Shown here piece by piece: positions 168 to 31,681 of a stretch of 31,681 nt of DNA. A program made the position numbers and the translations under genes. The notes below the pieces were generated by a model. The model had not been told where the DNA came from, did no database searches, and saw only the letters and a program-made list of their open reading frames with translations. The stretch covers positions 1 through 31,681 of the forward strand of contig JAVYME010000008.1 of NCBI GenBank assembly GCA_038736825.1. Reading direction: 5' to 3'. The stretch comes from Candidatus Iainarchaeum sp. Its GTDB lineage: Archaea > Iainarchaeota > Iainarchaeia > Iainarchaeales > DTGL01. Position 1 is the stretch's first letter. The number at the start of each line of letters is the position of its first letter.

Positions 168-228
168 ACCATCAAACTTTACAATTGCAATCGCAAGGTA
201 ATAAAACCTTTCAATGCCTTATTTTTGC

Positions 229-3661: not shown

Positions 3662-3674
3662 GTTTTTTGCCGAG

Positions 3675-5544: not shown

Positions 5545-5546
5545 AG

Positions 5547-5618: not shown

Positions 5619-5663
5619 TGTGTGATTAACAATTCTGCATGATTACCTTTAAATTGTTTTTAG

Positions 5664-8914: not shown

Positions 8915-9057
8915 TCTTTTTTGGCAAAGGTTTTTATACTGTGTTTTTTTTCTTTAAAGCCCATTGTGCTTTAATGGAAAACCGCTTAAGGGCATAGCAA
9001 CGTTTCTAGTTATTGTTTAAACTCTTGTTTTTAAGGTGTTCTTTTTATTTTTTTTTT

Positions 9058-11206: not shown

Positions 11207-11301
11207 GCTTTTTCCAGCCAAAAAGGTTTTTTTCAATCCAAGCAATATTTTTATAGTACAAGCCCCTATTTTATTCTTATTTGATAGAAGCGGTTTTGGG
11301 A

Positions 11302-14781: not shown

Positions 14782-15378
14782 AATTTCTTGATTCCATAAT
14801 TGCTTGAACAAATCGCTTGCAGCAAAACCAGCGTTATCGCACACCAAATCTATTGCTGTGCGCTTTCTACTGGTAACCCTTAAACCATTAACTGTTTCTT
14901 CCTCTATTGGCAAATCCTCAGAGTAAAGCCACACCTGGCAATTTTCTCCTGCAAGGGACTCAAGCTCTTCCAATAATTGTTTTTTTTCTTTTTTTGAAAC
15001 ATAAGCGCAAACCCTTTTAGAGGAAACATTTGGCTGGAATTGTTCCAGAGCTGAATCCAAGCAAAGCACTCCCCTGCTCCCCAGCAATTTCAATACCTCT
15101 TCTTTTGAAAGCGAAACACTCATTTTCCCAATAAGCGCACTCTTCATGTTTCTAAAAGAAGCAATGCATTCAATTATTCCATAAGGGTTGGCTAAAGCAT
15201 AAGCCCCTTGCTCTTTGCCTATAAGGTTTCTTTCAGATAAATATTTTGCAACCTTGTTCACTTGCCCCAGAGAAACACCTTTCTCTTTGCTCAAAGAAAG
15301 CTGAGTGAAAGCCTGTTTTTCCAGCATTGCACTCAAAATAGAAAAAGTCACTGGCTTTGAAAAATCAATGGATTTCAT
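14776..15378 (-). CDS. Winged-helix DNA-binding protein (AbiEi-antitoxin-like architecture), putative regulator
   Basis: N-terminal wHTH-like segment LSKEKGVSLGQVNKVAKYLSERNLIGKEQGAYALANP. The C-terminal domain contains LLGSRGVLCLDSALEQF. It is divergent from the giant surface gene. No nucleotidyltransferase (AbiEii) partner is present. Confidence 0.45.
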   Translation of the reverse strand: MKSIDFSKPVTFSILSAMLEKQAFTQLSLSKEKGVSLGQVNKVAKYLSERNLIGKEQGAYALANPYGIIECIASFRNMKSALIGKMSVSLSKEEVLKLLGSRGVLCLDSALEQFQPNVSSKRVCAYVSKKEKKQLLEELESLAGENCQVWLYSEDLPIEEETVNGLRVTSRKRTAIDLVCDNAGFAASDLFKQLWNQEIL

Positions 15379-18500: not shown

Positions 18501-21500
18501 AGTGGGATATATTAATGAAACTGTGGTTTCAAGCAATCTTTCTTCAACAACTTGGGCACATGTTGCTTTAACATATGATCTTTCAAATGTAAGCCTCTAT
18601 GTCAATGGTGTGCTTAAGTCAACCCAAACCCTAACAGACACCATTGCCCTCAATGCAAATGATTTGTTTGTTGGAAAAAATTTTTTTGGCAAAATTGATG
18701 ATGTCCGCGTTTACAATCGCGCTCTTTCACAGGCTGAAATTGCTGCAGATATGCGTGAAAATGCTTTGGGCAAAAAGATTTTGCACTTGAAAATGGATGA
18801 AGAAAATGCTTCAATAAGGGATTATTCTTCTTTCAATAATCATGGCTGGCTTGGTGGCAGCACCAGCCTATTAATGCGTTTTGATGAAAACTCTGGCTAT
18901 ATTGCACAAGACAGTTCCGGTTATGGAAATACTGGCACAATTTATGGCAATACAGTGCTTTTAATGAATTTTGACGACAACACTTCCAAAACAATTAAAG
19001 ACCTTTCTAGCAGAAACAACAATGGCATTTTGTATGGTTCAACTCGATTATTAATGAACATGGATGACAGTCGCAGTCAAACCATTGTTGATTCAACAGG
19101 TTATGCAAACAATGGAAACTATCGTGGCTCGAGTTTGTTTTTTGATGGACTAAGTGCATATGTGCAAAGGAGCAGCCCGTCTAATATTCCAACTGGCAAC
19201 ACGGTAACCGTGACTGTTTGGATCAAACCAGATTCCCTTCAAGGTGATGCCTCTTATAATGGTATTGTTTCATGGGGTCCTCGAACTGGCACTGGGACAA
19301 GTTTTTTGTTCAGTTTGCAGAACAATGGGCGTCTTAGTATGGGGACCTGGAACAACAATTTTGTTCCTTCTTCTGGTCCTACTGTTAGATGGAATGAATG
19401 GAATTTTGTGGCAGTTGTTTTGGACGGACAGAGCGTGACACTTTATGTTAATGGAGAATCTGTTAATGGAACTCTTTCCTCGACACCAGCCATTCAATCA
19501 GGGGTTTTGAATGTTGGTTCAACTGATAACCCTGGACGCTACTTTAAGGGAAACATTGATGAGTTAAGGATTTATAGTCGTGCTCTCAGTTCGACAGAAA
19601 TACTAGAGCAAATGCGTGGCATTTTTTCTAATAATGCTGGCTTGAGGGTTTTATGGTATTTCAAGGAAGGTTCTGGCACTAGTGTGGCAGATGACTCTGG
19701 AAATGGCAACACAGGAACTCTAATGGGCGGCGCTAGTTGGCAGGATGTAATTGTTAACTGGAACACTCCACACTGCTATGCGGATAGTGCAACATATAGT
19801 TCCGGTTCTTATAATTGTCCTTCTGGAACAACCACCTTTAAAGTCTATCATTATGTTGCAACAGAAGGTTGTTGTGATAGCTACTATATTTACTCGGGTG
19901 GAGGAGTGAAGTATTCTGGGGCGGGTTGCCTAACTGGTGGAACTTGTTCTTCTGGTAATTGCAATGCTCCATCTGGGGCGTGGTCTGCAGAGTATTCATA
20001 TAGTGGACCAGTCAGTTTTACTTTAACAACTGACAGCAGTATTGTCTATTATGGGGTAAGAGTTGATAAAATTTCTTGTTATGTTCCTGGTTCGCTTCCA
20101 ACTTGGAGCACTGAAAGCCCCGCAATATGGCAGTCAAGCAGTGCACTTGCAAATGAAGGCGGTTCGGCTTTAGCGTTTAATGGAATTGATACATATGTTG
20201 AAGTTCCACATACTGCTAGTTTATATTTGAACAATCAAGTCAGTGTCGAGGCATGGGTTAATCTTAAATCTTTCAACAGTTCTGATTGGGGGTCAATGAT
20301 TGTCAGCAAGTATGGCGGAAACTGGAAAGGTTACAATTTATATCTTGCCAATACCACTGGCAAACCAGCATTTAGTATTGCAACAACCACGCCATCCAAT
20401 GCAATTTATTCAGTAATCAGCGATGATGCGATAAGCCTTAATTCTTGGACTCACATTGTTGGGGTTTGGGATGGTTCAACAGCGCATGTTTATGTAAATG
20501 GCGTTTTGAAAAAATCAGTTTCTGCCCCTTATATTACACAGGACGCAACGCCGTTATACATTGGAAAAAATGCATGGTCAGGATATGGGTTTTTAAATGG
20601 CTTAATTGATGAAGTTGCGATTCATGGTCGCGCTTTAACTCAAGCCGAGATCTTGGATCACTATACTTCTAGGAAAGCAAAGTTTTCTGACTGGAATGCT
20701 GGAATGTCAGGCACAGCATTGCAGTTTGACGGTAATAGTTATGTTTACATCGGGGATAGTTCTAGCCTTGATATTACTAACAAGATTTCAATTGAAGCCT
20801 GGGTTTATGCTAACACTTATGGCAAGAGCAAGAGCACTATTCCTGGAAATTTGGAGTCAGCTAATATTTTGAGCAAGATGGACACTCCCACGAGTTGCAC
20901 TGGGCCCTTTTGGTGGGAGTACAGAAACAATGGTATTTTGGATGTCTATTTTAGAAACACCTCGGGCAGTATAATTTATGTTCGCACTAACTTGCCAATC
21001 CGCCAATGGTATCACATAGTTGCAACTTATGATTCCAGTACTGGAACAGCCAAGGTTTACTTGAATGGTGTTGATACAAATACTGTTGTTAGTTCTGGTT
21101 TTGGGCAATTAAGAAATGGCATGGAATTATTGCTTGGCACTGGAAAGGGCATCAATTATGGAAACTCTTTTGATGGCAAACTTGACGAGTTAGTAATTTA
21201 TTCCAAGGTTCTCTCTCAAGCAGAAATTTTTGAACACTATATTGCAGGCAAAGCAAGGCATGCAGACTGGGTTTCAGGAAAGAATGGTTCGGCATTGCAG
21301 TTTCCGGGTTTGGGGGAATATGTTGAGGTTGCCACAAGCACCTCTATAGCGCCTACTGAGCTGTCTTTATCTGCTTGGATTAATGTTACACAAACAGCTA
21401 GTTATAATATTTTATTTGCAAAAGATTATACTTCACATTCTTATCCTTACTATTCATACCAATTAAGGACTACCCCAAGTGGAATTGAATGGTGTTGTAT

Positions 21501-23064
21501 AAACCTTTGTCTCACTTACAGTGGAGGTGCGCTTCCAACTAATTCTTGGCAGCACATTGCTGCCACTTGCAAGAGCGGAGAGCAAAAAATTTACTTGAAT
21601 GGGGTTGCAGTTGCCAGCAGTTCAACAACTGGCTCTATTGTTTATTATAATACAAATCTTTTAATTGGAAAAGCAAGAAATTTTGATGGAAGATTTTTTG
21701 GAATAATGGATGAAGTTGCCATTTACTCTAAAATTCTTTCCGCCAACGAAATATCCAAATTATATGTTGAGGGAAGAGCCCGGCATTCTGATTTTAATTC
21801 AGGAATTTCTGGAAAAGCAATACAGTTTGATGGAGTGGATGATATTGTTTCAATTCCAGATTCTGATTCTTTGGACATGAAAAATGATAGTTTTTCCATT
21901 TTTGCTTGGGTGAAAAGAAACAAGTTTAATGATGAGCAGCAAATTGTAGCCAAATATGGCAGCATAGCATATAATGGTTATAGGTTTGAGTTTGGAGCGG
22001 ATAACAAGCTTGGCTTTTTTGCTGGCGATGGCGGAAGTTGGGACATTTACTTACAGTCTTCTTCAACTATTACTGATTCAGGCTGGCATCACGTTGGAGT
22101 GGTAATCAACAGAAGTAGCGTAGGCCAATTATATATTGATGGCAAGCCAAACGGCAATGCTGCAAGTGCCACTTCAATTGGAAACATAAACAATGCAGAT
22201 CCTGTTTACATCGGTTCTGCGCAATGGTCAACCAAGCGCTTTGGTGGCATCATTGATGATGTTCGCATTTACAATTATGCCAAATCTGCTCAAGAAATTG
22301 AAGCGGATTATAATTTTGGGGTTAGAGAACATAGTGCTCATATTCAAATCACTGACCAGAACTTGGTTGCTTTATGGCATTTGGATGGAAATGCTATGCA
22401 AACAACAGCCTTGGACTCAAAAGGAAGCAATCACGGAACGCTCGCCAACTTTGACTTTTGGCATGCTGATTCTGGCTGGGTTGAAGGCAAATTTGGAAGA
22501 GCTTTGAGATTTGATGGAAATAATGATTATATTGCAGTTAATGACTCTAGTTTGTGGGATTTTAGGGGAAAAAATGTTTCAATTGAGGTTTGGTTTAAAG
22601 CAAGTTCAGTGCAAATTGATCCATGGCCAACTCTTTTGGATCATTTTGTTGGTGGCACTCCTGGCGCGGGATGGCGCCTTGGTTTTGACTATAATAAAAC
22701 CAAAATAGTGTTTGCGCACCGACATGATGGCACTGGTGACCAAATTTACCTTGTTTCAACAAAAGATTATGCTGATAATCAATGGCATCACGTGGTTGTG
22801 GTTTTGGATAATGGAATTGCAAAACTTTATTTGGATGGTTTACTGGACAAAACAGACTCTTATGCCAATTTGAATGACCATGATGCGCCATTATATGTGG
22901 GAGGGCAAGGTATTAGCTATTCCTTTAATGGTAGCATTGATGAGATTGCAATTTATCACAGGGCATTATCTGAAACCGAAATAAAGGACCATTATTACTC
23001 TTTTGTGGACAAGGGAATGATTTATTCAGCTGGAACTATAAAGGGCTATGGTGAAAACCAATGA
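15586..23064 (+). CDS. Giant secreted surface protein (2,492 aa): signal peptide, 8 LamG/concanavalin-A-like lectin modules, with nested DUF2341 + DNRLRE/CBM96-like, GATase1/ThuA-like and Cys-rich CUB-like inserts
   Basis: Signal peptide MVSVKKVLKFSIFILLFFSLFYSPASS. A LamG closing block, [ILM]D[ED][VLI]x[IV][YH]xxxL[ST]xxE[IV], recurs eight times, ending at nt 17496, 18753, 19614, 20664, 21240, 21765, 22311 and 22995. The recurring lead block is F[DN]EG.G....D.S..GN.G.L, followed by AL.FDG.DDY. The DUF2341 block is FSYFRPVTVSN...VWVKIPSIP.GNKTIYFYYGN. Many N-x-S/T sequons are present. Confidence 0.85.
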   Translation: MVSVKKVLKFSIFILLFFSLFYSPASSFRCDAGSLETTCILSTFQNLDNNFSVSGTGNLVIESTASLNTNGNDLGISMTGFIENRGDINTNLSPATVRFKTGTAEPFTDIGLVGDWNFNEGSGNIARDAINGNNGTVYGATWQPSSVQLPKKSGSAIAFDGNDDYIDIGDISLLENFSYFSLSAWIKPSKLSTPPFFSGFSYFRPVTVSNSGSALTDYQVLVTINTSILVSAGKMRSDCADMRFSDSDNATSLSYWLESGCNSTTTKVWVKIPSIPNGNKTIYFYYGNSSASSGSTTSTLEAYQNTGDLDSEIKSVYYPNNNYVGDLHWTIGGWGDYYYALFKVPSSLRPSSVTSANINTATLYSYGFYQNENSGSTLTQTVNLAYITSSWNPSTVTWNTRPSQGSTFFTGSTVQLGPSQSTSATWHTFNITTWAKDSSVGWFGTNHGIYVIPSTNSGMYYRGYSANHNPPWYIVITYDTSKNIIIEKDSNGFIWRTRKYSSPEPSASIGSEQTTGSAQFVVGKEGVYKIEAYGNNIRFFTGNNWSGAILTSQSTLSTNAWQHIVATYDGSTKKLYINGVLDSNTVSVSGSVGQNSRKFSIGASDTGTAWANYFNGFIDEVRVYNRALSIEEVQQLYNSSKPEDAVLHLKFDEGTGLIASDSSAYGNHGLLYNFHAPRSTGWTSDAIDGNALEFDGVDDYVKVSDSNTLKITSSLTVEGWFKPDSSKKAPIKVLSIYPCSTCRINDILGSYGLGLFSVECMSYTAFNSGAYNLAKYDVVILDGADCWASAANLDLEERNAIVSFVLNGGAFISTHDTICQKSWPEFHQILGYDCNGGYTGCYPTGCAALTPVNRTRVGAITTYPYVLPASISVQNTHTTNGQIPKTAIRWYELTADDSGYDVYLATNTYGAGYGRTAMLQWGHGAYNCDCTGGSLPGADESKLIVNTLYWAAMPRTIFKQNSYGLYVDSNFAVGYINETVVSSNLSSTTWAHVALTYDLSNVSLYVNGVLKSTQTLTDTIALNANDLFVGKNFFGKIDDVRVYNRALSQAEIAADMRENALGKKILHLKMDEENASIRDYSSFNNHGWLGGSTSLLMRFDENSGYIAQDSSGYGNTGTIYGNTVLLMNFDDNTSKTIKDLSSRNNNGILYGSTRLLMNMDDSRSQTIVDSTGYANNGNYRGSSLFFDGLSAYVQRSSPSNIPTGNTVTVTVWIKPDSLQGDASYNGIVSWGPRTGTGTSFLFSLQNNGRLSMGTWNNNFVPSSGPTVRWNEWNFVAVVLDGQSVTLYVNGESVNGTLSSTPAIQSGVLNVGSTDNPGRYFKGNIDELRIYSRALSSTEILEQMRGIFSNNAGLRVLWYFKEGSGTSVADDSGNGNTGTLMGGASWQDVIVNWNTPHCYADSATYSSGSYNCPSGTTTFKVYHYVATEGCCDSYYIYSGGGVKYSGAGCLTGGTCSSGNCNAPSGAWSAEYSYSGPVSFTLTTDSSIVYYGVRVDKISCYVPGSLPTWSTESPAIWQSSSALANEGGSALAFNGIDTYVEVPHTASLYLNNQVSVEAWVNLKSFNSSDWGSMIVSKYGGNWKGYNLYLANTTGKPAFSIATTTPSNAIYSVISDDAISLNSWTHIVGVWDGSTAHVYVNGVLKKSVSAPYITQDATPLYIGKNAWSGYGFLNGLIDEVAIHGRALTQAEILDHYTSRKAKFSDWNAGMSGTALQFDGNSYVYIGDSSSLDITNKISIEAWVYANTYGKSKSTIPGNLESANILSKMDTPTSCTGPFWWEYRNNGILDVYFRNTSGSIIYVRTNLPIRQWYHIVATYDSSTGTAKVYLNGVDTNTVVSSGFGQLRNGMELLLGTGKGINYGNSFDGKLDELVIYSKVLSQAEIFEHYIAGKARHADWVSGKNGSALQFPGLGEYVEVATSTSIAPTELSLSAWINVTQTASYNILFAKDYTSHSYPYYSYQLRTTPSGIEWCCINLCLTYSGGALPTNSWQHIAATCKSGEQKIYLNGVAVASSSTTGSIVYYNTNLLIGKARNFDGRFFGIMDEVAIYSKILSANEISKLYVEGRARHSDFNSGISGKAIQFDGVDDIVSIPDSDSLDMKNDSFSIFAWVKRNKFNDEQQIVAKYGSIAYNGYRFEFGADNKLGFFAGDGGSWDIYLQSSSTITDSGWHHVGVVINRSSVGQLYIDGKPNGNAASATSIGNINNADPVYIGSAQWSTKRFGGIIDDVRIYNYAKSAQEIEADYNFGVREHSAHIQITDQNLVALWHLDGNAMQTTALDSKGSNHGTLANFDFWHADSGWVEGKFGRALRFDGNNDYIAVNDSSLWDFRGKNVSIEVWFKASSVQIDPWPTLLDHFVGGTPGAGWRLGFDYNKTKIVFAHRHDGTGDQIYLVSTKDYADNQWHHVVVVLDNGIAKLYLDGLLDKTDSYANLNDHDAPLYVGGQGISYSFNGSIDEIAIYHRALSETEIKDHYYSFVDKGMIYSAGTIKGYGENQ
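18856..19125 (+). repeat. Three in-frame tandem 90-nt (30-aa) units inside the giant gene
   Basis: Unit 1 is GSTSLLMRFDENSGYIAQDSSGYGNTGTIY. Unit 2 is GNTVLLMNFDDNTSKTIKDLSSRNNNGILY. Unit 3 is GSTRLLMNMDDSRSQTIVDSTGYANNGNYR. Each is exactly 30 codons (18856-18945, 18946-19035, 19036-19125). They are diverged copies of the LamG lead motif. Confidence 0.8.
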
Positions 23065-24269
23065 AGGGAATGAGAAAAAAGCACAAGTGGTTTTTATTTT
23101 TGCTTTTCATAGTTTCCGTTTTTGCCCAGGCTTTTGCCACTTTTGGTTCAAATGCAACAATTTTTAACCAGGGAAGCTCTCCAGTGACTGTACAAATTTC
23201 TTGCACTTCAGGTCAGGGCTATACTTGTTTTGCCATCAAATATAGCGTTGATGGCAATTCTTGGCAAAACTATTATGGTGCTGATTTGAATGTTGTTTTG
23301 ACTGAGGATGGCAATCACATAATTAGGTATTATGCAATAGGCCGCGCTTGTTATAGTGAAAAATGCACGCATGTTTTTGAGCCAATGAAATATGTGTGGG
23401 CATATGTAGTGACTAGAGTATCTCCAACAATTATACTTAATTCCCCTATTGGGGGGGAATTGTGGCGCGGCATTCATGCTATTGATTTCAATGTAAGACA
23501 ACCCCAAAACAATGAATTACACCTTGCAATTTATTATTCTTCTGACAGAAACAAATTCCAAAATGTTATAGTAAGCGATTTGAATTTGAACAATTATCCT
23601 AATATTGCAGCCTTAAATTGTGATGGTTCTAACTGGTCAAACAGCACCAGGTGCACTTATGACTGGAATACTGCAATCATTCCAGACGGAAACTGGTACA
23701 TTGACTTGAACATATGGGAGAGAAAATATTTTTTGAGTGATTCAAATTCAACCTTTTCGCATTTAATGATAGACAACAATCCGCCTTTTACAAACCTTGT
23801 TTCTCCAACTGGTTGGCAAACTCAAGATTTTAATGTTGTGCTTTCTTGTTCTGATGCCAGTGGTTCTGGGTGTGCTTCTACAAGTTATGGGTTGAATTTT
23901 GGGCCTTGGGAAACGTACGGTCAAGGTGTGTCAGAATGGTGGAATTCTTCTTGGCAGTACAGGCGCAAAATATTTTTTGACAATTCCAATCAACCGCTAA
24001 AAACGAATCATTCTGTTTTGCTCAGGCTTAATTCTGGCAATTTTGATTTTTCAAAAGTGCAATCTGCTGGTCAAGATTTAAGGTTTAGGGATGTCAATCA
24101 ACAAATTGCTATTGAATTCTTTTTCGACTATTTTAATGCAGCATTGCAGAGTGCAATTGTTTGGATTAAAGTGCCACAAATTGATGCAAATTCTAAATCG
24201 GACTATGTTTGGATGTATTATGGCAATCCTTCAGCAACTGATGCTCAGTCAACCAATTGGTTTGGCTAG
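23061..24269 (+). CDS. Secreted protein with Ig-like/OmpL47-type beta domains and a C-terminal DUF2341 module
   Basis: The start overlaps the stop of the giant gene (ATGA). Signal peptide MKGMRKKHKWFLFLLFIVSVFAQAFA. Chitobiase-C/Ig-like block ISCTSGQGYTCFAIKYSVDGNSWQNY. OmpL47-like block PPFTNLVSPTGWQTQDFNVVLSCSDASGSGCASTSY. DUF2341 block WQYRRKIFFDNSNQ...IVWIKVPQIDANSKSDYVWMYYGN. Confidence 0.7.
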   Translation: MKGMRKKHKWFLFLLFIVSVFAQAFATFGSNATIFNQGSSPVTVQISCTSGQGYTCFAIKYSVDGNSWQNYYGADLNVVLTEDGNHIIRYYAIGRACYSEKCTHVFEPMKYVWAYVVTRVSPTIILNSPIGGELWRGIHAIDFNVRQPQNNELHLAIYYSSDRNKFQNVIVSDLNLNNYPNIAALNCDGSNWSNSTRCTYDWNTAIIPDGNWYIDLNIWERKYFLSDSNSTFSHLMIDNNPPFTNLVSPTGWQTQDFNVVLSCSDASGSGCASTSYGLNFGPWETYGQGVSEWWNSSWQYRRKIFFDNSNQPLKTNHSVLLRLNSGNFDFSKVQSAGQDLRFRDVNQQIAIEFFFDYFNAALQSAIVWIKVPQIDANSKSDYVWMYYGNPSATDAQSTNWFG

Positions 24270-24694
24270 TGTTTTAACTTTATTTCTTTTGAGGGGTTGT
24301 TCATTTCGCTTTCAAAGCATTTATCACAACACCATTTTGCTTTCAGGTTTTTTGAGGAATCGATTTTTTTGCATTCGGTTAACTGTACTGAGGCTGCTTT
24401 TTGTGGTTCCAGTGGTTCGTTGATGGTGGCAATGTCTGTTCCTTGAATTGTTGGAATGGTTATTTGAACTGATTGGATTGTTTTTTCTCCACCATTAAAG
24501 AATGGAACAGCCAGTCTTTCATTAATGCATTCGCTTTCCCCGTATTCCAGCAAGCAGCCATTTCTCATGGCTTCACTTAGGTTTTCGGCAGGCGCATTAG
24601 CAAGATTTGTTATGTAGAAAAAAATCCCATATGCTGCCATAAAGAGAATGAATCCCGCCGGCAACAGCCACTTGCTTTCAATTTTTTTTTCCAT
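24266..24694 (-). CDS. Small N-terminally anchored or exported protein with 6 Cys, unknown function
   Basis: MEKKIESKWLLPAGFILFMAAYGIFFYI hydrophobic anchor, then a soluble domain with Cys pairs (GC..EC, EC, WCCDKC). Its stop overlaps the stop of the convergent 23061-24269 gene within CTAG. It is divergent from the radical-SAM operon. Confidence 0.55.
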   Translation of the reverse strand: MEKKIESKWLLPAGFILFMAAYGIFFYITNLANAPAENLSEAMRNGCLLEYGESECINERLAVPFFNGGEKTIQSVQITIPTIQGTDIATINEPLEPQKAASVQLTECKKIDSSKNLKAKWCCDKCFESEMNNPSKEIKLKH

Positions 24695-24715
24695 TCAAAA
24701 ATCTTTTGCAATGAT

Positions 24716-24725
24716 ATTTATAAAT
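24716..24725. promoter_or_regulatory. Palindromic TATA box (ATTTATAAAT) shared by divergent genes
   Basis: A perfect 10-nt palindrome is centred at 24720/24721. That is 26.5 nt from the minus-strand ATG (24694) and 28.5 nt from the plus-strand ATG (24749). The whole intergenic region is only 54 nt. Confidence 0.55.
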
Positions 24726-24748
24726 CCCTTTTCAAAGTTGCTTTATTT

Positions 24749-25684
24749 ATGCCAGAGCGCTTGGACTTAAAACTTGGCTTTTCCTGCAATAACAATTGTC
24801 TTTCCTGTCCCCAAGCACATAGGCGACACTTGGGGGATTTAACAACTGCACAAGCCAAAAAATTCCTGCTCGCAGGCTTAAGAGATGGTGCCAAAGAGCT
24901 TGTGCTTACAGGTGGCGAACCAACCATTAGAGCTGATTTAATTGAACTTGTTGAATTTGCAAGAAAAAAAGGCTTTGAAAGAGTGCAATTGCAAACCAAT
25001 GCAAGAATGCTTTCCTATAAATCGCTTGCATTAAAACTTGTTGAAGCAGGAATAACAGAATTTTGTGTTGGCTTGCATTCCGACAAAAAAGAAACACAAG
25101 AATTTCTCACGCGCTCTCCAGGTTCTTTCACTCAAACAATTCAAGGAATAAAAAATTTGGTTGAACTAAACCAATACGTTACAATTAACTCTGTTATTCA
25201 CAAGCTTGACTTTGAAAGGCTTCCTTTGCGAGCAAAAATGGCTGTAGAGTTGGGCGTGCAACAATTCCAGCTTGCCTTCATTCACTGTGCTGGCAATGCC
25301 TTCGAAAACATGGATTTGTTGTGCCCAAAAAAATCCAAAGTAATGCTTTTCGTTCACAAAGCCCTTGAAATTGCCGCCAATGCCGGCTTAACAGCAATGG
25401 TTGAAGCCTACCCATTTTGCTTTATGCAAGGCTTTGAAAAACACTGCTCTGAACTATACATGCCCTCAGCTGAAATAAGAGACGCAGAAGGCCTAGTCAA
25501 AGACTTTGACAGAGTGCGCAAAGAAAGCGGAAAATTAAAAGGTCCAAACTGTTCAAAATGCAAGTTTTTTTTGGTGTGTGAAGGTCCATGGAAAGAATAC
25601 CCGCAAAAGTTTGGCTGGACTGAATTTAAACCAGTGAAAGGCAAAAAGATTGCTAGTGCCAGAGAATTTTTGGGTGAAAAATAA
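24749..25684 (+). CDS. Radical SAM enzyme, ~300-aa class with a C-terminal Cys-cluster (twitch/partial-SPASM-like), paralogue A
   Basis: CX3CX2C motif SCNNNCLSC near the N-terminus, GGEPTIRADLIELVEFARKKGF, and QTNARML. C-terminal Cys are at PFCFMQGFEKHC and GPNCSKCKFFLVCEG. Confidence 0.85.
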   Translation: MPERLDLKLGFSCNNNCLSCPQAHRRHLGDLTTAQAKKFLLAGLRDGAKELVLTGGEPTIRADLIELVEFARKKGFERVQLQTNARMLSYKSLALKLVEAGITEFCVGLHSDKKETQEFLTRSPGSFTQTIQGIKNLVELNQYVTINSVIHKLDFERLPLRAKMAVELGVQQFQLAFIHCAGNAFENMDLLCPKKSKVMLFVHKALEIAANAGLTAMVEAYPFCFMQGFEKHCSELYMPSAEIRDAEGLVKDFDRVRKESGKLKGPNCSKCKFFLVCEGPWKEYPQKFGWTEFKPVKGKKIASAREFLGEK

Positions 25685-26287
25685 ATGGCAAAATTTAAAA
25701 AAAAGCATTGGCTTGCTTTTATGGTTTTATTTTCATTAATTTTTATTATTTTCTTGGTTTTGTTTTTAAAAGAACTGTTGTTCATTGATTCAAATCCAGT
25801 TATTAAAAAAGAAGCCGCGATTATGCCAATAAAAAGCGAATCAATGGAAAAAGATTTTTTGGGAGTTAGCGTTTTCAATGCTTTATCAAAAAACAATATT
25901 AAAAACTGCGGGGATTTTAACGAATGCAGGCGTCTTTTCCTTTTGGCTGAAAAAGAATGCACTGGCAACATTAACGAGAAAATCTTTTGCTTGGCAGTAA
26001 TTGACGAAAATTTGAATTATTGCAAGTGGATTGATTTGAAATGGTATGCTATTACTTGCACTGCTTTTTTGGAAAAAAACATTGGCAAGTGCATGGAAAT
26101 AAGAGATGCCTTTGAGATAGCTCCTTGTATTAAGGACTTTGTTTTAAACAATGAGGACGCTAACTGTGGTGTGCTTTCAAGCGACTGGGAAAAAGCCTGT
26201 GAAGCCTTCAAAAACAAAAGCAGGGCAAAATGTGACATGATTGATAGTGGCACCATCAAGAAGGCATGCATTACATTTTTGGAATAA
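25685..26287 (+). CDS. Membrane-anchored or exported protein with 12 periodically spaced cysteines (candidate maturation substrate)
   Basis: The ATG immediately follows the stop of the preceding gene (TAAATG). The N-terminus is MAKFKKKHWLAFMVLFSLIFIIFLVLFL. Cys lie at residues 75, 81, 92, 102, 113, 125, 136, 148, 161, 172, 183 and 195. No catalytic motif recognised. Confidence 0.65.
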   Translation: MAKFKKKHWLAFMVLFSLIFIIFLVLFLKELLFIDSNPVIKKEAAIMPIKSESMEKDFLGVSVFNALSKNNIKNCGDFNECRRLFLLAEKECTGNINEKIFCLAVIDENLNYCKWIDLKWYAITCTAFLEKNIGKCMEIRDAFEIAPCIKDFVLNNEDANCGVLSSDWEKACEAFKNKSRAKCDMIDSGTIKKACITFLE

Positions 26288-26293
26288 GGGTGT

Positions 26294-27190
26294 TTGCATT
26301 TGCAAGAGCACTTAAATTTTTACACTTTAGTTTTGGGGCATCACTGCAACAATAATTGCATTTTTTGCACTCGTCCGAGTGATCCTTCTATAAAAAGTGT
26401 TTGGGGTTTTGTTGAAGAAAAATCCTTTGCCACGGTTTTTCGAGAAATTGCGAGTGCAAGGAAAAGGTTTGACTCAATAGTGCTTTCTGGCGGCGAACCA
26501 ACAACAAGAAGGGATTTTTTCAAAATCCTGCAAGCATGCTGTTCCCTTGGTTTTGAAAGAATTTCAGTGCAATCTAATGCAAGAAAATTTTCTTCAATGG
26601 GTTTTGCAGAAAAAACCTTGTCAATTTTGGGTTCTCGAAGTGACTTTTATATTTCATTTCACGCTAAAAGGGAAAAATTGTTCAACAAGCTAAGGGGCAC
26701 AAACTCATTTAAAGAGTCCTTGAGTGGAATAAAAAACCTGTTATTGCTGAAAGCACCAGTGCGCATCAACATTGTTGTTATGAAGCCAAATTATCGCGAT
26801 TTGCCAGAAACAGTGCGCTTTTTGGACTCTTTGGGGGTAAAGGCAGTGGAGTTTTCTTTTGTGCACCCCAATGGCAGAGCATTTGCCAACAGGGAAACAG
26901 TGGTTCCCCAAATAGAAAAAGTAATTCCCTTTGTTGAAAGAGCAGGCGAGTTTTTAGAGAAAAAACAAGTATTTTTTTCCTTGAACGATTTTCCATTATG
27001 TTCGCTGAATAAATGCAGGAAAAATGCTTCTGAACTTTTTTTGAATGAAAAACTGGCATTTCAGAGCCCAAAAATAAGTTTTAAGGCAAAAGAGTGCCAA
27101 AAATGCCTTTATTTTGACAAATGTCCGGGCATTTGGGCTAATTATCTAAAAATTTTCAAATTTCATTTTTCTCCAATAACCAAACTTTGA
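26294..27190 (+). CDS. Radical SAM enzyme, ~300-aa class, paralogue B (most divergent)
   Basis: HHCNNNCIFC (CX3CX2C), SGGEPTTRRDF and QSNARKF. C-terminal Cys are at PLCSLNKC and ECQKCLYFDKCPG. There is no ATG near the 5' end, so a TTG start at 26294 is assumed and the exact start is uncertain. Confidence 0.8.
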   Translation: MHLQEHLNFYTLVLGHHCNNNCIFCTRPSDPSIKSVWGFVEEKSFATVFREIASARKRFDSIVLSGGEPTTRRDFFKILQACCSLGFERISVQSNARKFSSMGFAEKTLSILGSRSDFYISFHAKREKLFNKLRGTNSFKESLSGIKNLLLLKAPVRINIVVMKPNYRDLPETVRFLDSLGVKAVEFSFVHPNGRAFANRETVVPQIEKVIPFVERAGEFLEKKQVFFSLNDFPLCSLNKCRKNASELFLNEKLAFQSPKISFKAKECQKCLYFDKCPGIWANYLKIFKFHFSPITKL

Positions 27191-27241
27191 TAAACTGTCC
27201 AATATTTAATTTTTTGGAATATATTTTCCTTTTTAGAACGG

Positions 27242-28717
27242 GTGTTTTTTTTGGCTAAAAGCTTTTTTGGCTCAACTGCAACTGAAGAGCAATATGTTGC
27301 AAATTTTTATCACGTAAAAAAATTTGGCGAAGATGCATTCCTTGTAACCACTGAGCATGGCTCTTGGGCTCTTCTTTCAAAGAAAGAATTCGAATTGCTA
27401 AGGCTTGGCAGAGTGCAAGCAAACCCAGCCTTGTTTGAAGAACTAAAAAAACAAGGCATTATTTTGACAACTGAAAATATTGAAAATGTCATATCTGATT
27501 ACAGGCAAAAAAAGTCTTTTTTGTTTAGACCGCCATCGCTTCACATAATCACGCCCACCCTGCGGTGCAACCTCAAATGCATTTACTGCCATTCCAGGGT
27601 GTGCGCTGACCAAGAAAAAGGCTATGACATGGACAAAGAAACAGCAAAAAAAACAGTGGATTTCATAATGCAAACTCCCTTGAATGAATTGAAAATAGAG
27701 TTTCAAGGTGGGGATTTTTTGTTGAATTTTGAAATAACAGAATTCATTATAGATTATGCTTTGGAAAAAGCCAAAGAAAAAGGAAAAAAAGTCAATTTTG
27801 CAATGGTTTCAAACCTTACTTTAATGAATGAAAAAATCCTTGAAAGCTTGAGCAAGAGAAAGATTATGGGTTTGGCAACATCGCTTGACGGTCCCAAAAA
27901 AGTGCACGACCTCAACCGAAGGCATTTGGGAGGAAAAGGCTCTTATGAAGATACTGTTTACTGGATCAAGAGGATTAAAAGCGAGTGGAAGTACAAGTTC
28001 AACCTTAACGCCCTTTGCACAGTCACAAGGCATTCTTTTGGTCATGAAAAAGAGATAGTGGACGAATACATTAGCTTGGGCTTTGCGGGTGTTTGGATGC
28101 GGCCTCTTAACAATATCGGTTTTGCCGCAGATGCTTGGCAGAAAATTGGTTATTCTCCTAGAGAGTTTTTTTCCTTTTGGAAAAAATCCTTTGAATACAT
28201 TCTTGAAAAAAACCGTGCTGGGGAAAACCTGATAGACTATTTTGCCCTGATTTTCTTGAAAAAAATACTTCAAAAAGAAGACCCGCACATGGTGGACATA
28301 ATGTCGCCTTGTGGTGCTGGAATAAGCCAGTTATTGTATAAGTACAATGGTGATATTCACACTTGCGATGAAGGCAAAATTTTTTCTGAATTCAAGCTTG
28401 GCAATGTAAGAGAGTCCAAATACGAGGACATTTTCAGAAACGAAACCCTTATTCCAATGATTGACATTTCCAGCAAAAAAAACTATCTTTGCGATAACTG
28501 TGCTTGGGACCCATATTGTGGGGTTTGCCCGATTTATTCTTATGCAGCACAGGGTTCAATTGTTTCTATTCTCCCGCTTGATGACCGATGCAAGGTTTAT
28601 GGAAAAATCATAGAAGAAATTTTTAGAAAAATCCTTTTTTCTGAAGAGGATCGCCAGGTAATGCTTGGCTGGCTTGAAAGCGAAAGGCTTTTCAAAAAGG
28701 AGCCGGAAAGTGCTTGA
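27242..28717 (+). CDS. Radical SAM/SPASM-domain maturase with a ~100-aa N-terminal extension (anSME/HxsB-like architecture)
   Basis: LRCNLKCIYCH (CX3CX2C) is preceded by FYHVKKFGEDAFLVTTEHGSWALLSKKEFELLRLG...LFEELKKQGIIL...SLHIITPT. The SPASM Cys pattern is PCGAGISQLLYKYNGDIHTC ... CDNCAWDPYCGVC ... DDRC. A GTG start is assumed. Confidence 0.85.
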   Translation: MFFLAKSFFGSTATEEQYVANFYHVKKFGEDAFLVTTEHGSWALLSKKEFELLRLGRVQANPALFEELKKQGIILTTENIENVISDYRQKKSFLFRPPSLHIITPTLRCNLKCIYCHSRVCADQEKGYDMDKETAKKTVDFIMQTPLNELKIEFQGGDFLLNFEITEFIIDYALEKAKEKGKKVNFAMVSNLTLMNEKILESLSKRKIMGLATSLDGPKKVHDLNRRHLGGKGSYEDTVYWIKRIKSEWKYKFNLNALCTVTRHSFGHEKEIVDEYISLGFAGVWMRPLNNIGFAADAWQKIGYSPREFFSFWKKSFEYILEKNRAGENLIDYFALIFLKKILQKEDPHMVDIMSPCGAGISQLLYKYNGDIHTCDEGKIFSEFKLGNVRESKYEDIFRNETLIPMIDISSKKNYLCDNCAWDPYCGVCPIYSYAAQGSIVSILPLDDRCKVYGKIIEEIFRKILFSEEDRQVMLGWLESERLFKKEPESA

Positions 28718-28719
28718 AA

Positions 28720-29766
28720 ATGCTCGCTTTTTTCCTTTTTCCTGCTTTCCTGATTGGCTTGATTGCATCAATAGAGGACTTCAAGCAGGGCATTATAAGA
28801 AATCTTTATGTTTTAACCCTTTTGATTTTGGGAATCACATTCCAGTTTTTGTCAGGGGCTGATTTTTTTATTCTAGCTCCAGTTCTGGCTTCCGCTTTTG
28901 TGGTTTCCTTTGCTTTTTGGCTTTCTGGATTATGGCCTGCAGGTGATGCAAAGCTTTTCTGGGCATATTTTTTCTTTTTTCCTCAAACCTTTTTTTTGGA
29001 AAAAGAGCTGGTTTTGGCTTTCCTTTCCAACATTTTTGTTCCAATTTTTTTCTTTATGTTTTTTGTAGTATTATGCAAGAGCCGCCTTGGAGTGATCAAA
29101 GAAGCCTTAAAGTATTCTCTTGACCCTTACCGGCTTTTCATGCTTGCAGTAATGCTTTTGGGTTTTGTCTGGATTGTCATGCTGCCCTTAGCGTTTTTCA
29201 GGATTGAAACTGGCTTGCTTGGCACGCTTGCAGTATTGCTTTTAGCCTTCGAGTTGCTTAAACGGTTTTGGACATTTAAAACCGAGACCTTTTTCATTCT
29301 CTGCGCTTTTGCCAGAGTCTTGCTTTTTCCAGCAGAAATTTATTCAATTCCATTTGCCATAAATTTTTTGAAAACACTGGCGGTTTTTGTCTTTTTCAGG
29401 TTTTTCATTTTGTATTTGGCTTTCAAGCTTTACGCTTCAAAAGTTCTCATAAAAAACCTCAAGGAGGGGATGATTCCAGCCGAAGGAATCAAAAAACAAG
29501 GCAAAAAATTTGTAAAAGAGTCTTTTTTGAATTCTGGCTTTATTTCATTCGTTTCAAGTGAAAAAAAGCGCTTTGAGCATAGCAAAAACTGCCTTTCAAA
29601 AAAAGACATTGCAAAACTGCAACGCCTTGAAAAGCGTGGCTTGCTGGAATTCGATTCGCTTTTGGTGCACCAAACACAACCTTTCGGGTTCTTCATTTTA
29701 TTAGGTTTCCTGTTAACTCTGCTTTTTCAGGGCAAGAATTTTTTGCTTGCAAACCCGCTTTTTTAA
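28720..29766 (+). CDS. Second A24-family aspartyl membrane peptidase paralogue, embedded in the radical-SAM operon
   Basis: Asp1 context is ASIEDFKQGIIRN and Asp2 context is LWPAGDAKLFWAY, a GxGD variant. The C-terminal architecture parallels the 1589-2413 protein (LKEGMIPAEGI ... LLVHQTQPFGFFILLGFLL versus LEEDEIIAKEFL ... PVYRSLPPFAPFLLFGVIV). The ATG at 28720 lies 2 nt after the upstream stop. The ORF-track TTG at 28714 is the alternative start. Confidence 0.7.
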   Translation: MLAFFLFPAFLIGLIASIEDFKQGIIRNLYVLTLLILGITFQFLSGADFFILAPVLASAFVVSFAFWLSGLWPAGDAKLFWAYFFFFPQTFFLEKELVLAFLSNIFVPIFFFMFFVVLCKSRLGVIKEALKYSLDPYRLFMLAVMLLGFVWIVMLPLAFFRIETGLLGTLAVLLLAFELLKRFWTFKTETFFILCAFARVLLFPAEIYSIPFAINFLKTLAVFVFFRFFILYLAFKLYASKVLIKNLKEGMIPAEGIKKQGKKFVKESFLNSGFISFVSSEKKRFEHSKNCLSKKDIAKLQRLEKRGLLEFDSLLVHQTQPFGFFILLGFLLTLLFQGKNFLLANPLF

Positions 29767-29792
29767 ATTAGTTTCCCAGTTTAATTTCCCTT

Positions 29793-30713
29793 ATGATCAA
29801 AGTATTGAAGACCGGGATTTTGCTGGGCTATCGTTGCAACAACAACTGCCGGTTTTGCTATTGTGCTGACAAAAAAGGCGTTATTGCCCCCATGAAAACA
29901 GAAGAGGTGAAAAAACAGATTTTGGCTGGAAGAAACCGCGGCTCCAATTTTGTGGATTTCTTGGGAGGCGAACCCACGCTGAGAGCAGATTTACCAGAAC
30001 TAGTTGAATTTGCAAAAAGAGTTGGCTTTGAACAAATTGGCATTACAACCAATGGCAGGGTTCTTTCCAAAAAAGATTACACCAAACAACTTCTTGATTC
30101 TGGCTTAAACCACGTGATTTTTTCACTTCACGGTCATAATGCCGAGCTTCATGATTATTTAACGCGGTCACCAAATTCTTTTGTGCAAGCAACAAAAGGC
30201 ATCAAAAACGTGAAGGAATTGAACCCAAAAGCCTATGTTTGCATTAACACTGTTTTGTTGAAGCAAAACCTAAAAGTTTTGCCGGAAATCGTAAGGCTTG
30301 CCTTTGAACTCAAAGCCAATGGCATGGAATTGATTTTTCCCCATCCAAGAGGCAATGCTTGGCATAATTTTGAAGAAATGGTGCCAAACCTTGAAGAATT
30401 AATCGGGCCATTGCATGAAGCCCTGCATTTAGGGCATTCGCTTGGCATCAAGCACTGTTTTGCAAGATATGTGCCTTTTTGCTATATGTACGGCGACCTG
30501 GCATTCATAAGCGAATTTTTTTCCAAGGATTTTTTTGCAGAGCACCATATTGCTCCAGAATACCAAGACCTAGAAGTTGCAAAAAACCGTGCCGCTTATG
30601 GGCGAGTGAAAGGACCACAGTGCTCTGCATGCAAATACTTCAAGGAATGCGAAGGCATATTCAAAGAATACGCGCTCAAAAGGGGCTTTTCAGAGCTAGT
30701 GCCTGTGCCCTAA
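29793..30713 (+). CDS. Radical SAM enzyme, ~300-aa class, paralogue C
   Basis: YRCNNNCRFC, GGEPTLRADLPELVEFAKRVGF, TTNGRVL and YLTRSPNSFVQATKGIKNV (compare FLTRSPGSFTQTIQGIKNL in paralogue A). C-terminal Cys are at VPFCYMYG and GPQCSACKYFKECEG. Confidence 0.85.
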   Translation: MIKVLKTGILLGYRCNNNCRFCYCADKKGVIAPMKTEEVKKQILAGRNRGSNFVDFLGGEPTLRADLPELVEFAKRVGFEQIGITTNGRVLSKKDYTKQLLDSGLNHVIFSLHGHNAELHDYLTRSPNSFVQATKGIKNVKELNPKAYVCINTVLLKQNLKVLPEIVRLAFELKANGMELIFPHPRGNAWHNFEEMVPNLEELIGPLHEALHLGHSLGIKHCFARYVPFCYMYGDLAFISEFFSKDFFAEHHIAPEYQDLEVAKNRAAYGRVKGPQCSACKYFKECEGIFKEYALKRGFSELVPVP

Positions 30714-31681
30714 TTCTGATTTCTTGAAGTTTATTGTAGAGCACTCGCCTATTTCAAGAAAAACTGCTTTTTTTACTTCGTACTTTTCTGCTTCCAAGGC
30801 AAGTTCTTTTCGAGCTTTTTTTATTGCGTCTTTTTTGGAAAAAGCTGAAATATGGCCGAGCACTTCATAGTGTTCTTGGCTTTTATAAACCGCCAAAAAA
30901 TCTTTAATCCTGCTTTTGATTTTTTCCTTTTTTTCTGGCAGTCTTTCAAACAAGCGCCAGCATTGTGGGTCTGGCGCAAAAGGTGTTCCAAAGTATCCAA
31001 AGGAAAGGCATTTTGCGCCACCCTTACACTCTTGAAAGAAAAAGCATTTTTTGCAAATTTCTGAAGCATTTTGATGGCTGCGGAGCTTTTTTAGTTCCAT
31101 TGAATTGTTGAATATTTCCAAAAGGCTTTTTTTCAATACATTGCCTGCAAGAATTGGCAGTTTCCTGCAAGGATAAATGTTGCCGTTTGGAAGCACTGTT
31201 AGGGAGCCAAAACCAGCAGAGCAACCAACTGCCATATAATGTGGGTTTTGTGAAAGAATGCCATCCTCGCAACCCAAAAAGATTGCCATTTGCCCTTTGC
31301 CTCTTTTTTGTGATTCAGTGAAAACAAATTCGTAGAGCTTTTTTGTTTCTAAGGGATCAAGCATTTTTTCTTTGATTTGCAGGCCTCTGCCTGCAGGCAC
31401 AAACCTTCTCACACCCAATGCTTTTGCTCCAATGGAATCACAAAATTTAACCATTTCTGGAACATCACGCCAATTAGCCCTATTCACAGTCATTGAAACA
31501 ATGAATGGAATTCCTTCTTTTGCCAGAAAATCCATCCCCTGAACCGCTTTGCTGAAAGAGCCTTCTCCCCTCAAAAAATCATTGGCTTTTTGCATTCCAT
31601 CAAGGCTCACTTGAACATAATCCGGCTTTATTTTTTTCAGCTGTTCAGCCTCTTTTTTTCCAATCAATGTTCCGTTTGTTG
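30696..31681 (-). CDS. Radical SAM/SPASM-domain protein, 5'-truncated by the window edge, with a ~70-aa helical C-terminal tail
   Basis: The frame stays open to the window end (..TNGTLIGKKEAEQLKKIKPDYVQVSLDG, a typical rSAM core block), so the CX3CX2C region lies outside the window. The SPASM pattern is GCSAGFGSLTVLPNGNIYPC ... CKKCFFFQECKGGAKC ... DPQC. Its 3' end overlaps the convergent rSAM-C gene by 18 nt. Confidence 0.8.
   Translation of the reverse strand, partial: TNGTLIGKKEAEQLKKIKPDYVQVSLDGMQKANDFLRGEGSFSKAVQGMDFLAKEGIPFIVSMTVNRANWRDVPEMVKFCDSIGAKALGVRRFVPAGRGLQIKEKMLDPLETKKLYEFVFTESQKRGKGQMAIFLGCEDGILSQNPHYMAVGCSAGFGSLTVLPNGNIYPCRKLPILAGNVLKKSLLEIFNNSMELKKLRSHQNASEICKKCFFFQECKGGAKCLSFGYFGTPFAPDPQCWRLFERLPEKKEKIKSRIKDFLAVYKSQEHYEVLGHISAFSKKDAIKKARKELALEAEKYEVKKAVFLEIGECSTINFKKSELGHRH

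Follow-up and report, generated by a model that had tools for sequence, protein, structure and literature searches.

The His-Xaa-Ser (HXS) gene set HxsABCD goes back to a 2011 study by Haft and Basu, who reportedly defined it in silico (cited in PMC9062424 and PMC13128918). A 2026 study of E. coli showed that entry of phage DNA is blocked there by the HXS system, which acts through a periplasmic effector that is matured by radical S-adenosylmethionine (rSAM) enzymes; during maturation, one SHRSS repeat of E. coli HxsA acquires a +8 Da modification, and the protein is cleaved non-canonically at its N terminus, a step that needs HxsB, HxsC and HxsD and to which no protease was assigned (PMC13128918). 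HXS systems are found almost entirely in Pseudomonadota (99.7%), consist of four proteins (99.8%) and have the gene order HxsD-B-C-A (99.6%) (PMC13128918). In addition, NCBIfam contains the variants HxsA3 (NF038309), HxsA4 (NF038313), HxsC4 (NF038332) and HxsD_rel (NF038315), on which our literature search found no paper. Biosynthetic gene clusters have been surveyed in ten Iainarchaeota genomes, none of which yielded any (PMC9902471). Here we describe an rSAM gene island on a contig of Candidatus Iainarchaeum sp. (JAVYME010000008.1), which was analyzed in its entirety (31,681 nt; hereafter the window) and on which the island genes carry the locus-tag prefix QXK06. The island is a syntenic, cross-phylum module that contains a HxsB protein scoring above its model threshold, HxsC-like paralogues and a dedicated paralogue of the A24-family intramembrane aspartyl peptidases. 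We are confident that it belongs to an Hxs-type system and consider it probable, with less assurance, that it constitutes block 1 of a His-Xaa-Ser maturation system of DPANN archaea with the mechanism and function proposed below.

The island is placed in the His-Xaa-Ser system because its 491-residue rSAM/SPASM maturase (27242-28717, plus strand) is HxsB and because related loci carry genes for HxsD, an HxsD-like protein, HxsC and HxS-repeat precursors. The maturase matches the HxsB model TIGR03978 with 424.7 bits (equivalog cut-off, 370 bits) over profile positions 3-466 of 466, which makes it HxsB at the equivalog level. Since the profile is covered along its whole length, the N-terminal extension of the protein is a feature of the family. 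Pfam Radical_SAM, SPASM (29.1 bits) and Fer4_12 are matched as well. A preliminary description of the island, made from the sequence alone, had seen a combination outside every known class; this is contradicted by the equivalog-level HxsB and by the HxsD, HxsD-like, HxsC and HxS precursor genes of the relatives. Similarity to the rSAM/SPASM systems for peptides that are made on ribosomes and modified after translation (RiPPs), namely the PapB ranthipeptides, SCIFF and the sactipeptides, extends to a SPASM maturase with an N-terminal extension of the peptide-binding type, a leader-bearing precursor and an expected proteolysis of the leader. However, the 491-residue enzyme does not reach the PapB (149.1 bits; cut-off, 340) or SCIFF maturase (133.4 bits; cut-off, 425) thresholds, the target repeats are His-Xaa-Ser rather than Cys-rich, and the leader would be cut off by an intramembrane aspartyl peptidase instead of a C39 or other soluble protease, with no ABC exporter present.

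The three plus-strand enzymes rSAM_A (24749-25684), rSAM_B (26294-27190) and rSAM_C (29793-30713) are HxsC-like radical SAM paralogues. Pfam Radical_SAM, which is matched in all five island enzymes, gives 70.1, 67.1 and 90.2 bits for rSAM_A, rSAM_B and rSAM_C, respectively, and the best NCBIfam matches of all three are HxsC4 (139, 116 and 160 bits) and HxsC TIGR03977 (102, 113 and 90 bits). Thus, the three resemble HxsC4 in having it as their best match but differ from it in score (116-160 bits against a cut-off of 500), and they also lie below the HxsC cut-off of 267.9 bits. Of the two Hxs models to which the preliminary description had pointed, HxsB was therefore passed (424.7 versus 370 bits) and HxsC was not reached by rSAM_A, rSAM_B or rSAM_C. 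The three proteins share 29-38% identity, with rSAM_B at 29-31% to the other two. Their N-terminal motifs are CNNNCLSC (rSAM_A, C13-x3-C17-x2-C20), CNNNCIFC (rSAM_B) and CNNNCRFC (rSAM_C), and a C-terminal CxxCx5C is common to them. This two-cluster layout, with an N-terminal CNNNCxxC and a C-terminal CxxC, is the one described for E. coli HxsC. No NCBIfam cut-off for a cofactor, lipid or known RiPP family is approached. Roles in cofactor or lipid pathways (MoaA, PqqE, AhbD/NirJ, Tes, MftC) were rejected, as the matches to these models are generic to the rSAM core and far below cut-off.

Loci related to the island (L numbers below) were obtained by scanning GTDB representative genomes with an alignment of 28 island-type A24 sequences; open reading frames (ORFs) were called in all loci and labeled by BLAST against the window proteins. 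The scan yielded three groups of loci, from DPANN archaea (Iainarchaeum, Aenigmatarchaeota and Nanohaloarchaeota), from Poribacteria, and from many members of the candidate phyla radiation (CPR), Elusimicrobia, Omnitrophica and Clostridia. The component counts that follow are for those 23 DPANN loci that were informative, all of them reached by way of the A24 paralogue. HxsB (46-63% identity) and the rSAM_A orthologue (49-76%; CPR homologues, 40-47%) are each present in 20 of them, a small HxS-repeat protein in 14, HxsD and the rSAM_C orthologue (51-61%; CPR homologues, 38-42%) in 13 each, and an HxsD-like protein of 78-87 residues in 11, where the gene follows HxsD and corresponds to HxsD_rel. 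A family of 142-residue membrane-anchored proteins occurs in 10 loci, a 12-Cys protein in four and a further SPASM enzyme, encoded convergently in the window, in three, and rSAM_B orthologues (44-57% identity) are found in L011, L012 and L018 only. Because its orthogroup accompanies HxsB in nearly all DPANN loci, rSAM_A is likely the functional counterpart of HxsC.

The core rSAM_A-HxsB-A24 is common to about 20 of the related DPANN loci, often followed by rSAM_C and the 142-residue family. The simplest form, from Nanohaloarchaeota, reads rSAM_A-HxsB-A24-HxsD-HxsD_rel-x-HxsA. In the relatives, block 1 lies beside block 2 or is fused with it; in the two-block form, exemplified by L001, block 1 is rSAM_A-HxsB-A24-rSAM_C-142aa and block 2 is HxsD-HxsD_rel-rSAMs-HxsC-HxsA-617aa rSAM. 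The L001 proteins score 40 bits for HxsD, which also matches Pfam HxsD (PF27806), 43.4 bits for HxsD_rel (above its cut-off of 41) and 204 bits for HxsC; this last protein, which adjoins HxsA, is closer to the HxsC model than are the rSAM enzymes of the window. The closest relative of the island is L023 (rSAM_A, 76% and A24, 65% identity), which resembles the window in the succession of a DUF2341 protein, a divergent 142-residue protein gene, rSAM_A and the Cys protein; then come an A24 ORF of 192 residues, apparently a fragment, a second rSAM gene, HxsB, rSAM_C and a convergent block 2. The idea of a conserved island in which exported proteins or peptides are matured is therefore supported by a neighborhood that recurs in about 20 loci of Iainarchaeota, Aenigmatarchaeota and Nanohaloarchaeota.

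This recurrence also bears on the view that no functional system is present and that rSAM genes for housekeeping, cofactors, lipids or tRNA have come to lie by chance beside a housekeeping prepilin peptidase. Such a view can draw on the subthreshold matches of rSAM_A, rSAM_B and rSAM_C to MoaA, AhbD, NirJ, PqqE and Tes, and, DPANN genomes being compact, tight spacing by itself is weak evidence for a functional unit. Yet no cofactor or lipid cut-off is approached (MoaA, 74-92 bits versus 325), whereas that of HxsB is passed; a separate canonical A24 gene is present in the window, and the synteny holds in three DPANN phyla and in bacteria. We regard a chance cluster as largely refuted and its residual probability as slight.

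Two further features of the DPANN loci were observed. The metagenome-assembled genome (MAG) JAFCFP01 (Iainarchaeum Meg22_1618_Bin_64) contains two separate HxsB-A24 blocks, L005 with the order rSAM_C/142aa-rSAM_A-HxsB-A24 and L012 with the order HxsB-A24-rSAM_C-142aa. The islands in L002/L003, L004, L112 and L114 also hold B12-binding rSAM enzymes, PMT_2-type glycosyltransferases and S-adenosylmethionine-dependent methyltransferases, and that of L112 a YcaO protein, which suggests larger surface-maturation islands than the window shows.

The HxS-repeat precursors of the relatives are proteins of 90-190 residues that begin with a conserved N-terminal leader (LPxIKKxxxxFLxxEEG), followed by one transmembrane segment, the conserved stretch PEVAAAH.N.F.V.W..G...HGHH and from six to more than 30 HxS repeats, usually with a short Cys-containing tail. 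The leader is kept between archaea and bacteria, with P10, F19 and G25 invariant. Precursors from DPANN, CPR and Clostridia match HxsA3 or HxsA4, and that of L004 passes the HxsA4 cut-off (60 versus 55 bits). The preliminary description had seen no short leader peptide ORF, and a six-frame reading of the window likewise gives no short precursor ORF bearing HxS or other repeats. However, the profile of the DPANN leader domain matched P0047 (QXK06_04815, annotated as a hypothetical protein) on another contig of 14,187 nt, which is assigned to the same MAG as the window because it shares the locus-tag prefix QXK06. P0047 has the full leader, the transmembrane segment, about 10 HxS repeats and a Cys tail.

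Compared with the described HXS systems of E. coli, Klebsiella and Pseudomonas, the island shares an equivalog-level HxsB and HxsC-like two-cluster rSAM enzymes, its relatives encode the small HxsD-type protein, and both the relatives and the MAG itself encode a tandem HxS-repeat protein, a putative exported effector that would need N-terminal processing. The differences are nonetheless considerable. The host is an archaeon, whereas 99.7% of known systems are in Pseudomonadota (PMC13128918); the archaeal genes do not follow the order HxsD-B-C-A and are divided between two blocks. The archaeal form has extra SPASM enzymes and three to eight HxsC-like paralogues, of which none passes the HxsC cut-off. 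The archaeal precursor is small (90-190 residues), with a cytoplasmic leader and one transmembrane segment, in contrast to the Sec signal peptide and peptidoglycan-binding domain of the known effector. Finally, the archaeal islands encode additional proteins, namely the dedicated A24 peptidase, the pilin-like Cys protein and the 12-Cys protein. Thus, the Hxs/HXS system itself and the NCBIfam variants HxsA3, HxsA4 and HxsC4 are of an already known kind, whereas the archaeal host, the complement of at least five rSAM enzymes, the two-block architecture, the integral A24 peptidase and the two Cys-protein accessories appear undescribed so far. The island and its relatives represent a related but much expanded HXS-type system in DPANN archaea, to which the comparison loci add CPR and Clostridia, although the known system is described as essentially proteobacterial. 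They also draw attention to the surface-maturation islands of ultra-small symbionts as a large class that has gone unannotated.

The gene that directly follows HxsB (28714-29766, plus strand; QXK06_02340, with the NCBI start at 28720) encodes a divergent A24-family intramembrane aspartyl peptidase of 350 residues. It scores just short of the Pfam Peptidase_A24 cut-off (PF01478, 25.1 versus 26.5 bits, 1.4 bits short) and below that of Arc_PepC (20.2 versus 23.4 bits); many of its homologues have precomputed matches to PF01478 and PF06819. About 35 homologues were found, at 34-50% identity and mostly in DPANN MAGs. D20 (in DxxxxxIxN) and D76 (in WPAGDAKLF) are invariant in an alignment of 28 homologues, as expected for the catalytic aspartates of A24 peptidases, and the family profile matches FlaK (3s0x) with E=2e-5, the Asp motifs aligning to the corresponding FlaK region. 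A canonical A24 gene lies elsewhere in the window (1589-2413, plus strand; 274 residues, PF01478 51.5 bits, GGGDVKIF), directly after SRP54, and its product shares 33% identity with the island protein over just 75 residues. Because of this separate housekeeping copy, which also upholds the preliminary description of the peptidase as a dedicated paralogue, the island protein is by its sequence a true paralogue dedicated to the cluster, with its predicted catalytic site intact. HxsB and A24 are nearly always adjacent in the DPANN loci, spaced by 0-30 nt or overlapping in most of them. In the window, the corresponding gap measures 2 nt if the gene begins at the ATG at 28720, as it does in the NCBI annotation (P0001, 348 residues).

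Like the archaeal A24 peptidases FlaK (3S0X), PibD and EppA, the island protein is a polytopic membrane protein, has its two invariant Asp in motifs of the types DxxxxxIxN and GDxKL and resembles Arc_PepC in its C-terminal region; it also has the profile match to FlaK. It differs from them in having the signature WPAGDAKLF instead of GGGDVK and in its genomic setting, an rSAM operon in place of pilin, archaellin or assembly genes. Of its presumed substrates, the HxS precursors and the window copy of the 142-residue protein lack the canonical class III site [KR][GA]↓hydrophobic. None of four island-associated members tested gave an NCBIfam match, which leaves these peptidases without a model there, and a literature search found no paper linking A24 or prepilin peptidases with rSAM or Hxs genes in DPANN, CPR or Saccharibacteria. 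We consider the chances evenly balanced that the A24 paralogue processes the exported clients of the system. It is in any case a concrete candidate of its type, an A24-type intramembrane peptidase, for the HxsA-type processing step that has no assigned protease in E. coli.

Peptidase genes of this kind also accompany Hxs genes in bacteria. In the Clostridia locus L079 (9105-13590), the order is HxsA3-HxsD-A24-like-HxsC-HxsB, and all four Hxs proteins pass their models: HxsA3 with 111 bits (cut-off, 65), HxsD with 53.6 (50), HxsC with 333 (268) and HxsB with 506 (370). Thus, L079 and L004 tie this group to the HxsA3 and HxsA4 variants, respectively, while P0047 differs in scoring below both models. 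A second Clostridia locus, L078 (9057-13583), has the L079 layout by BLAST labels, with an ORF that gives no HxsD match in the HxsD position. This compact five-gene form (HxsA3-HxsD-A24-HxsC-HxsB) is the simplest context of the peptidase and should be more easily reconstituted than the archaeal form. Of the 44 bacterial loci, 33 have the A24-like gene no more than 300 nt from an rSAM gene, and 27 contain at least three rSAM genes; several loci also hold HxsB, HxsD and HxS-repeat peptides with the archaeal-type leader. In Saccharibacteria (L045, 9971-14344; L060, 9962-14235; L065, 9983-14294), five to seven HxsC-like rSAM genes precede an A24 gene of about 400 codons, after which come a gene for a protein of 360-383 residues and four genes resembling those of type IV pilins, whose prepilin sites are the classical G↓FTLIE. 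An rSAM array and a pilin operon are thus physically linked there.

Our model for the system is as follows. HxsD-type proteins and the N-terminal domain of HxsB would bind the precursor leader in the cytoplasm, where HxsB and the HxsC-like enzymes would install radical modifications in the HxS-repeat region. The single transmembrane segment would then insert the precursor into the membrane, and the A24 paralogue would cut off the leader or anchor at the cytoplasmic face in the fashion of a prepilin peptidase, such that the modified His-rich peptide would be freed or displayed at the cell surface. In a more far-reaching form, to which we give a distinctly lower probability, the A24 paralogue would be the integral fifth component of a widespread, undescribed HxsA3/A4-type branch (DPANN, CPR and Clostridia), removing the leader plus anchor from rSAM-modified His-rich surface peptides and possibly from pilin-like proteins. 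If true, this would represent a new mode of RiPP-like leader removal, would name the missing protease type for the non-canonical processing of HxsA in E. coli and would establish an apparatus, for the surface or against viruses, that is characteristic of ultra-small episymbionts.

Several observations weigh against the assignment of the island to an Hxs system in which the A24 paralogue acts on the precursor. First, rSAM_A, rSAM_B and rSAM_C all fail the HxsC and HxsC4 cut-offs, and P0047 falls below those of both HxsA3 (34.9 versus 65 bits) and HxsA4 (31.9 versus 55 bits). Second, Pfam, NCBIfam and family hidden Markov models run on the six frames of the window find no HxsD (TIGR03976/PF27806) or HxsD_rel, and with HxsA likewise absent from the window, the precursor is linked to the island only through another contig; the contig of the window stops 1 kb beyond the island. 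Third, the A24-anchored loci were found through the motif W[PA][AG]GDAK[LF]F and therefore form a biased sample. When the sample is anchored on HxsA instead, an A24 gene lies within 10 kb in only five of the roughly 11 contigs whose context extends to 7 kb or more, which fits a two-block organization without universal linkage. Fourth, the precursors contain neither a canonical archaeal class III cleavage motif nor a consistent AxA site, so that no A24 cut site can be assigned; they read ..SK[HF]K↓M[IL]S.GAFLG, in which position -1 is neither G nor A. Fifth, the full-length A24 homologues of Poribacteria have rSAM neighbors in 0 of 11 cases, and the Saccharibacteria peptidase may simply be PilD, given the ordinary type IV pilin genes that follow it. 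As to function, PADLOC 2.0, which has no HXS model, returned only generic, viperin-level rSAM similarity. A separate candidate for an A24 motif, the junction K-H-K-[WM]-[LF], which is seen in the Cys, 142-residue and DUF2341 proteins and in the HxS precursor, was rejected as not general, because the 142-residue family conserves K[RK]..[GA][LIF]P[IA]AF instead.

For the function of the modified peptide, a barrier to the entry of virus genomes could be proposed by analogy with the described system. An anti-viral function of this kind is a doubtful extrapolation, and a metal-binding or host-contact role may be set on an equal footing with it.

Between rSAM_A and rSAM_B, the island encodes a protein of 200 residues with an N-terminal transmembrane anchor and exactly 12 Cys (25685-26287, plus strand), spaced by 6, 11, 10, 11, 12, 11, 12, 13, 11, 11 and 12 residues. 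The spacing is kept in five loci, and ten of the Cys are invariant in a 15-sequence alignment. This raises the alternative that the 12-Cys protein is the main substrate, with the rSAM/SPASM enzymes cross-linking its periodic Cys residues through thioethers or otherwise and the A24 peptidase removing its N-terminal anchor. The gene lies 0 and 6 nt from its two rSAM neighbors, its adjacency to rSAM_A recurs in L023, L112 and L113, and its place is taken in L004 and L013 by a long form sharing the C-terminal domain; where fetched, the gene again adjoins rSAM genes. In addition, SPASM enzymes of the HxsB class are related to thioether-forming maturases, as the PapB and SCIFF matches attest (149 and 133 bits). 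Those scores are nevertheless far from the respective cut-offs of 340 and 425 bits, while the HxsB cut-off is passed, and since the Cys domain follows the anchor and is predicted to be extracytoplasmic, ordinary disulfides would explain the invariant Cys. Moreover, only four of the 23 loci contain the protein, the enzymes and peptidase being kept without it, and the family is very rare, with 24 representatives among 1.84 billion proteins. The preliminary description had seen a substrate candidate in the 12-Cys protein. That it is the conserved substrate is not supported by its four of 23 loci when set against the HxS precursor, which is found in 14 of 23 and once more in the same MAG. A profile search against the PDB and Pfam and NCBIfam scans, the Pfam scans covering long and short members, found no relative, and the AlphaFold2 model from the single sequence (pLDDT 47) is unreliable, was not used for a fold search and is uninformative as to this role. 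We thus think it improbable that the 12-Cys protein is the main substrate. Within the Hxs-type system that we favor, it is probably an optional surface accessory, and it or the giant LamG/DUF2341 protein encoded beside the island may be an additional client.

On the other side of the divergent spacer, on the minus strand, lies the gene for the 142-residue membrane-anchored Cys protein (24266-24694; QXK06_02315). Its family was assembled by BLAST within the fetched loci, a word-based homologue search having given one relative only, and comprises 13 members in related loci with a conserved anchor, six conserved Cys and the motif GC[VL]LEYG.W.CI...PF[YF]N...WCC..C[FY]. Every locus that has the family also has rSAM_C, and the family gene is usually directly downstream of rSAM_C; in the window and in L023, it has moved from the rSAM_C side to the divergent position. 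The AlphaFold2 model, built from a two-sequence alignment (pLDDT 72.6), places a transmembrane helix at residues 10-29 and a beta-sandwich at residues 45-131. The best Foldseek match in the PDB is a weak one to an archaeal type IV pilin (8fk7_A; E=9e-4, TM-score 0.39-0.41), followed by FlaG/FlaF (TM-score 0.38-0.53). The model is suggestive only, and the 142-residue protein may be put forward as a candidate pilin- or FlaF-like exported client or partner.

These data bear on another alternative, namely that the island specifies a modified-pilus system in which the A24 protein is a prepilin-type peptidase for pilin-like proteins (the 142-residue family and, in CPR, true type IV pilins), the rSAM enzymes modify filament subunits and the HxS peptide is separate or auxiliary. 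The predicted helix and beta-sandwich with pilin and FlaG/FlaF as best fold matches, the constant association of the family with rSAM_C and the Saccharibacteria order of rSAM array, A24 and four pilin genes with G↓FTLIE sites all point in this direction, as does the sequence of most family members, where a basic stretch and then G or A directly precede the hydrophobic segment (KRYG↓LPIAF or KEFA↓FPIAF). However, the fold match is weak (TM-score of about 0.4, E=9e-4) and to a generic beta-sandwich, and the copy in the window reads SKWL↓LPAGF, which is not a class III site. The family is absent from 13 of the 23 loci, among them every minimal version from Nanohaloarchaeota and Aenigmatarchaeota, where A24 is still kept with HxsB, HxsD and HxsA, and neither ORF nor Pfam analysis finds a pilus assembly ATPase or platform gene in the window island. 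A modified pilus as the purpose of the island thus seems to us unlikely. Within the Hxs-type system, rSAM_C and the pilin-like 142-residue protein probably make up a second module of enzyme and client that relies on the same peptidase.

The remaining enzyme of the island is encoded by a convergent radical SAM/SPASM gene on the minus strand (30696-31681), the 5' part of which is cut by the contig end. The frame is open to base 31679 (..TNGTLIGKK..), and the N-terminal CxxxCxxC part is cut off; the protein matches Pfam SPASM (45.7 bits) and, by its C-terminal half only, Radical_SAM. The SPASM rSAM gene given in the preliminary description is accordingly present and overlaps the 3' end of the operon, but is incomplete. 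No NCBIfam cut-off is reached, the best match being MftC with 109 bits (cut-off, 265). Homologues of this type (41-51% identity) adjoin A24 or HxsA in L007, L024, L025, L088/L090 and L093, making the gene a recurrent accessory of such islands. Overall, the gene order in the window is 142aa(-) / rSAM_A - Cys - rSAM_B - HxsB - A24 - rSAM_C / SPASM(-), and the ORF listing of the window contains all eight island ORFs at the positions from which this description began. The operon coordinates, the intergenic gaps of 0, 6, 51, 2 and 26 nt along the plus-strand genes, the 18-nt overlap of rSAM_C with the convergent SPASM gene (30696-30713), the three CNNNCxxC motifs and the 12 spaced Cys were all recovered from the sequence. 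So was a TATA box in the divergent spacer: by motif inspection alone, the 54-nt spacer contains a TATA-like box, TTTATAAAT, at 24717-24725, which places it 24 nt upstream of the rSAM_A ATG. Scans of the window for sigma-70 promoters and terminators were at chance level; these are bacterial models and not relevant to archaea.

Adjacent to the island on the plus strand is a pair of genes spanning 15586-24269, which overlap by 4 nt and encode a giant secreted protein of 2492 residues, with eight Laminin_G_3 (ConA-like) domains, DUF2341 and a weak CBM96-like stretch, and a 402-residue protein with a C-terminal DUF2341. Giant proteins with DUF2341 also flank Hxs-type islands in L010, L023, L088/L090 and L114, and the adjacency may not be accidental. 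Farther away, SRP54 is encoded at 214-1584 (plus strand), with the canonical A24 gene starting 4 nt later. ORFs of 200-605 codons without a Pfam family lie at 9510-10136 and 10136-10765 (both minus strand), 13159-14781 and 14776-15378, and that at 11281-13098 has a weak TSP3 repeat match only. An Rfam scan of the window found no riboswitch and three tRNAs, all on the minus strand: tRNA-Gly(TCC) at 3674-3746, tRNA-Gly(GCC) at 5546-5618 and tRNA-Val(TAC) at 5663-5736. No genes of mobile elements or of defense were seen beside the island; the context is one of ordinary archaeal housekeeping, and the other housekeeping genes of the window encode the archaeal Holliday-junction resolvase Hjc (9013-9474, plus strand), which confirms the domain of the source, and a Toprim-domain protein (7109-8506, minus strand).

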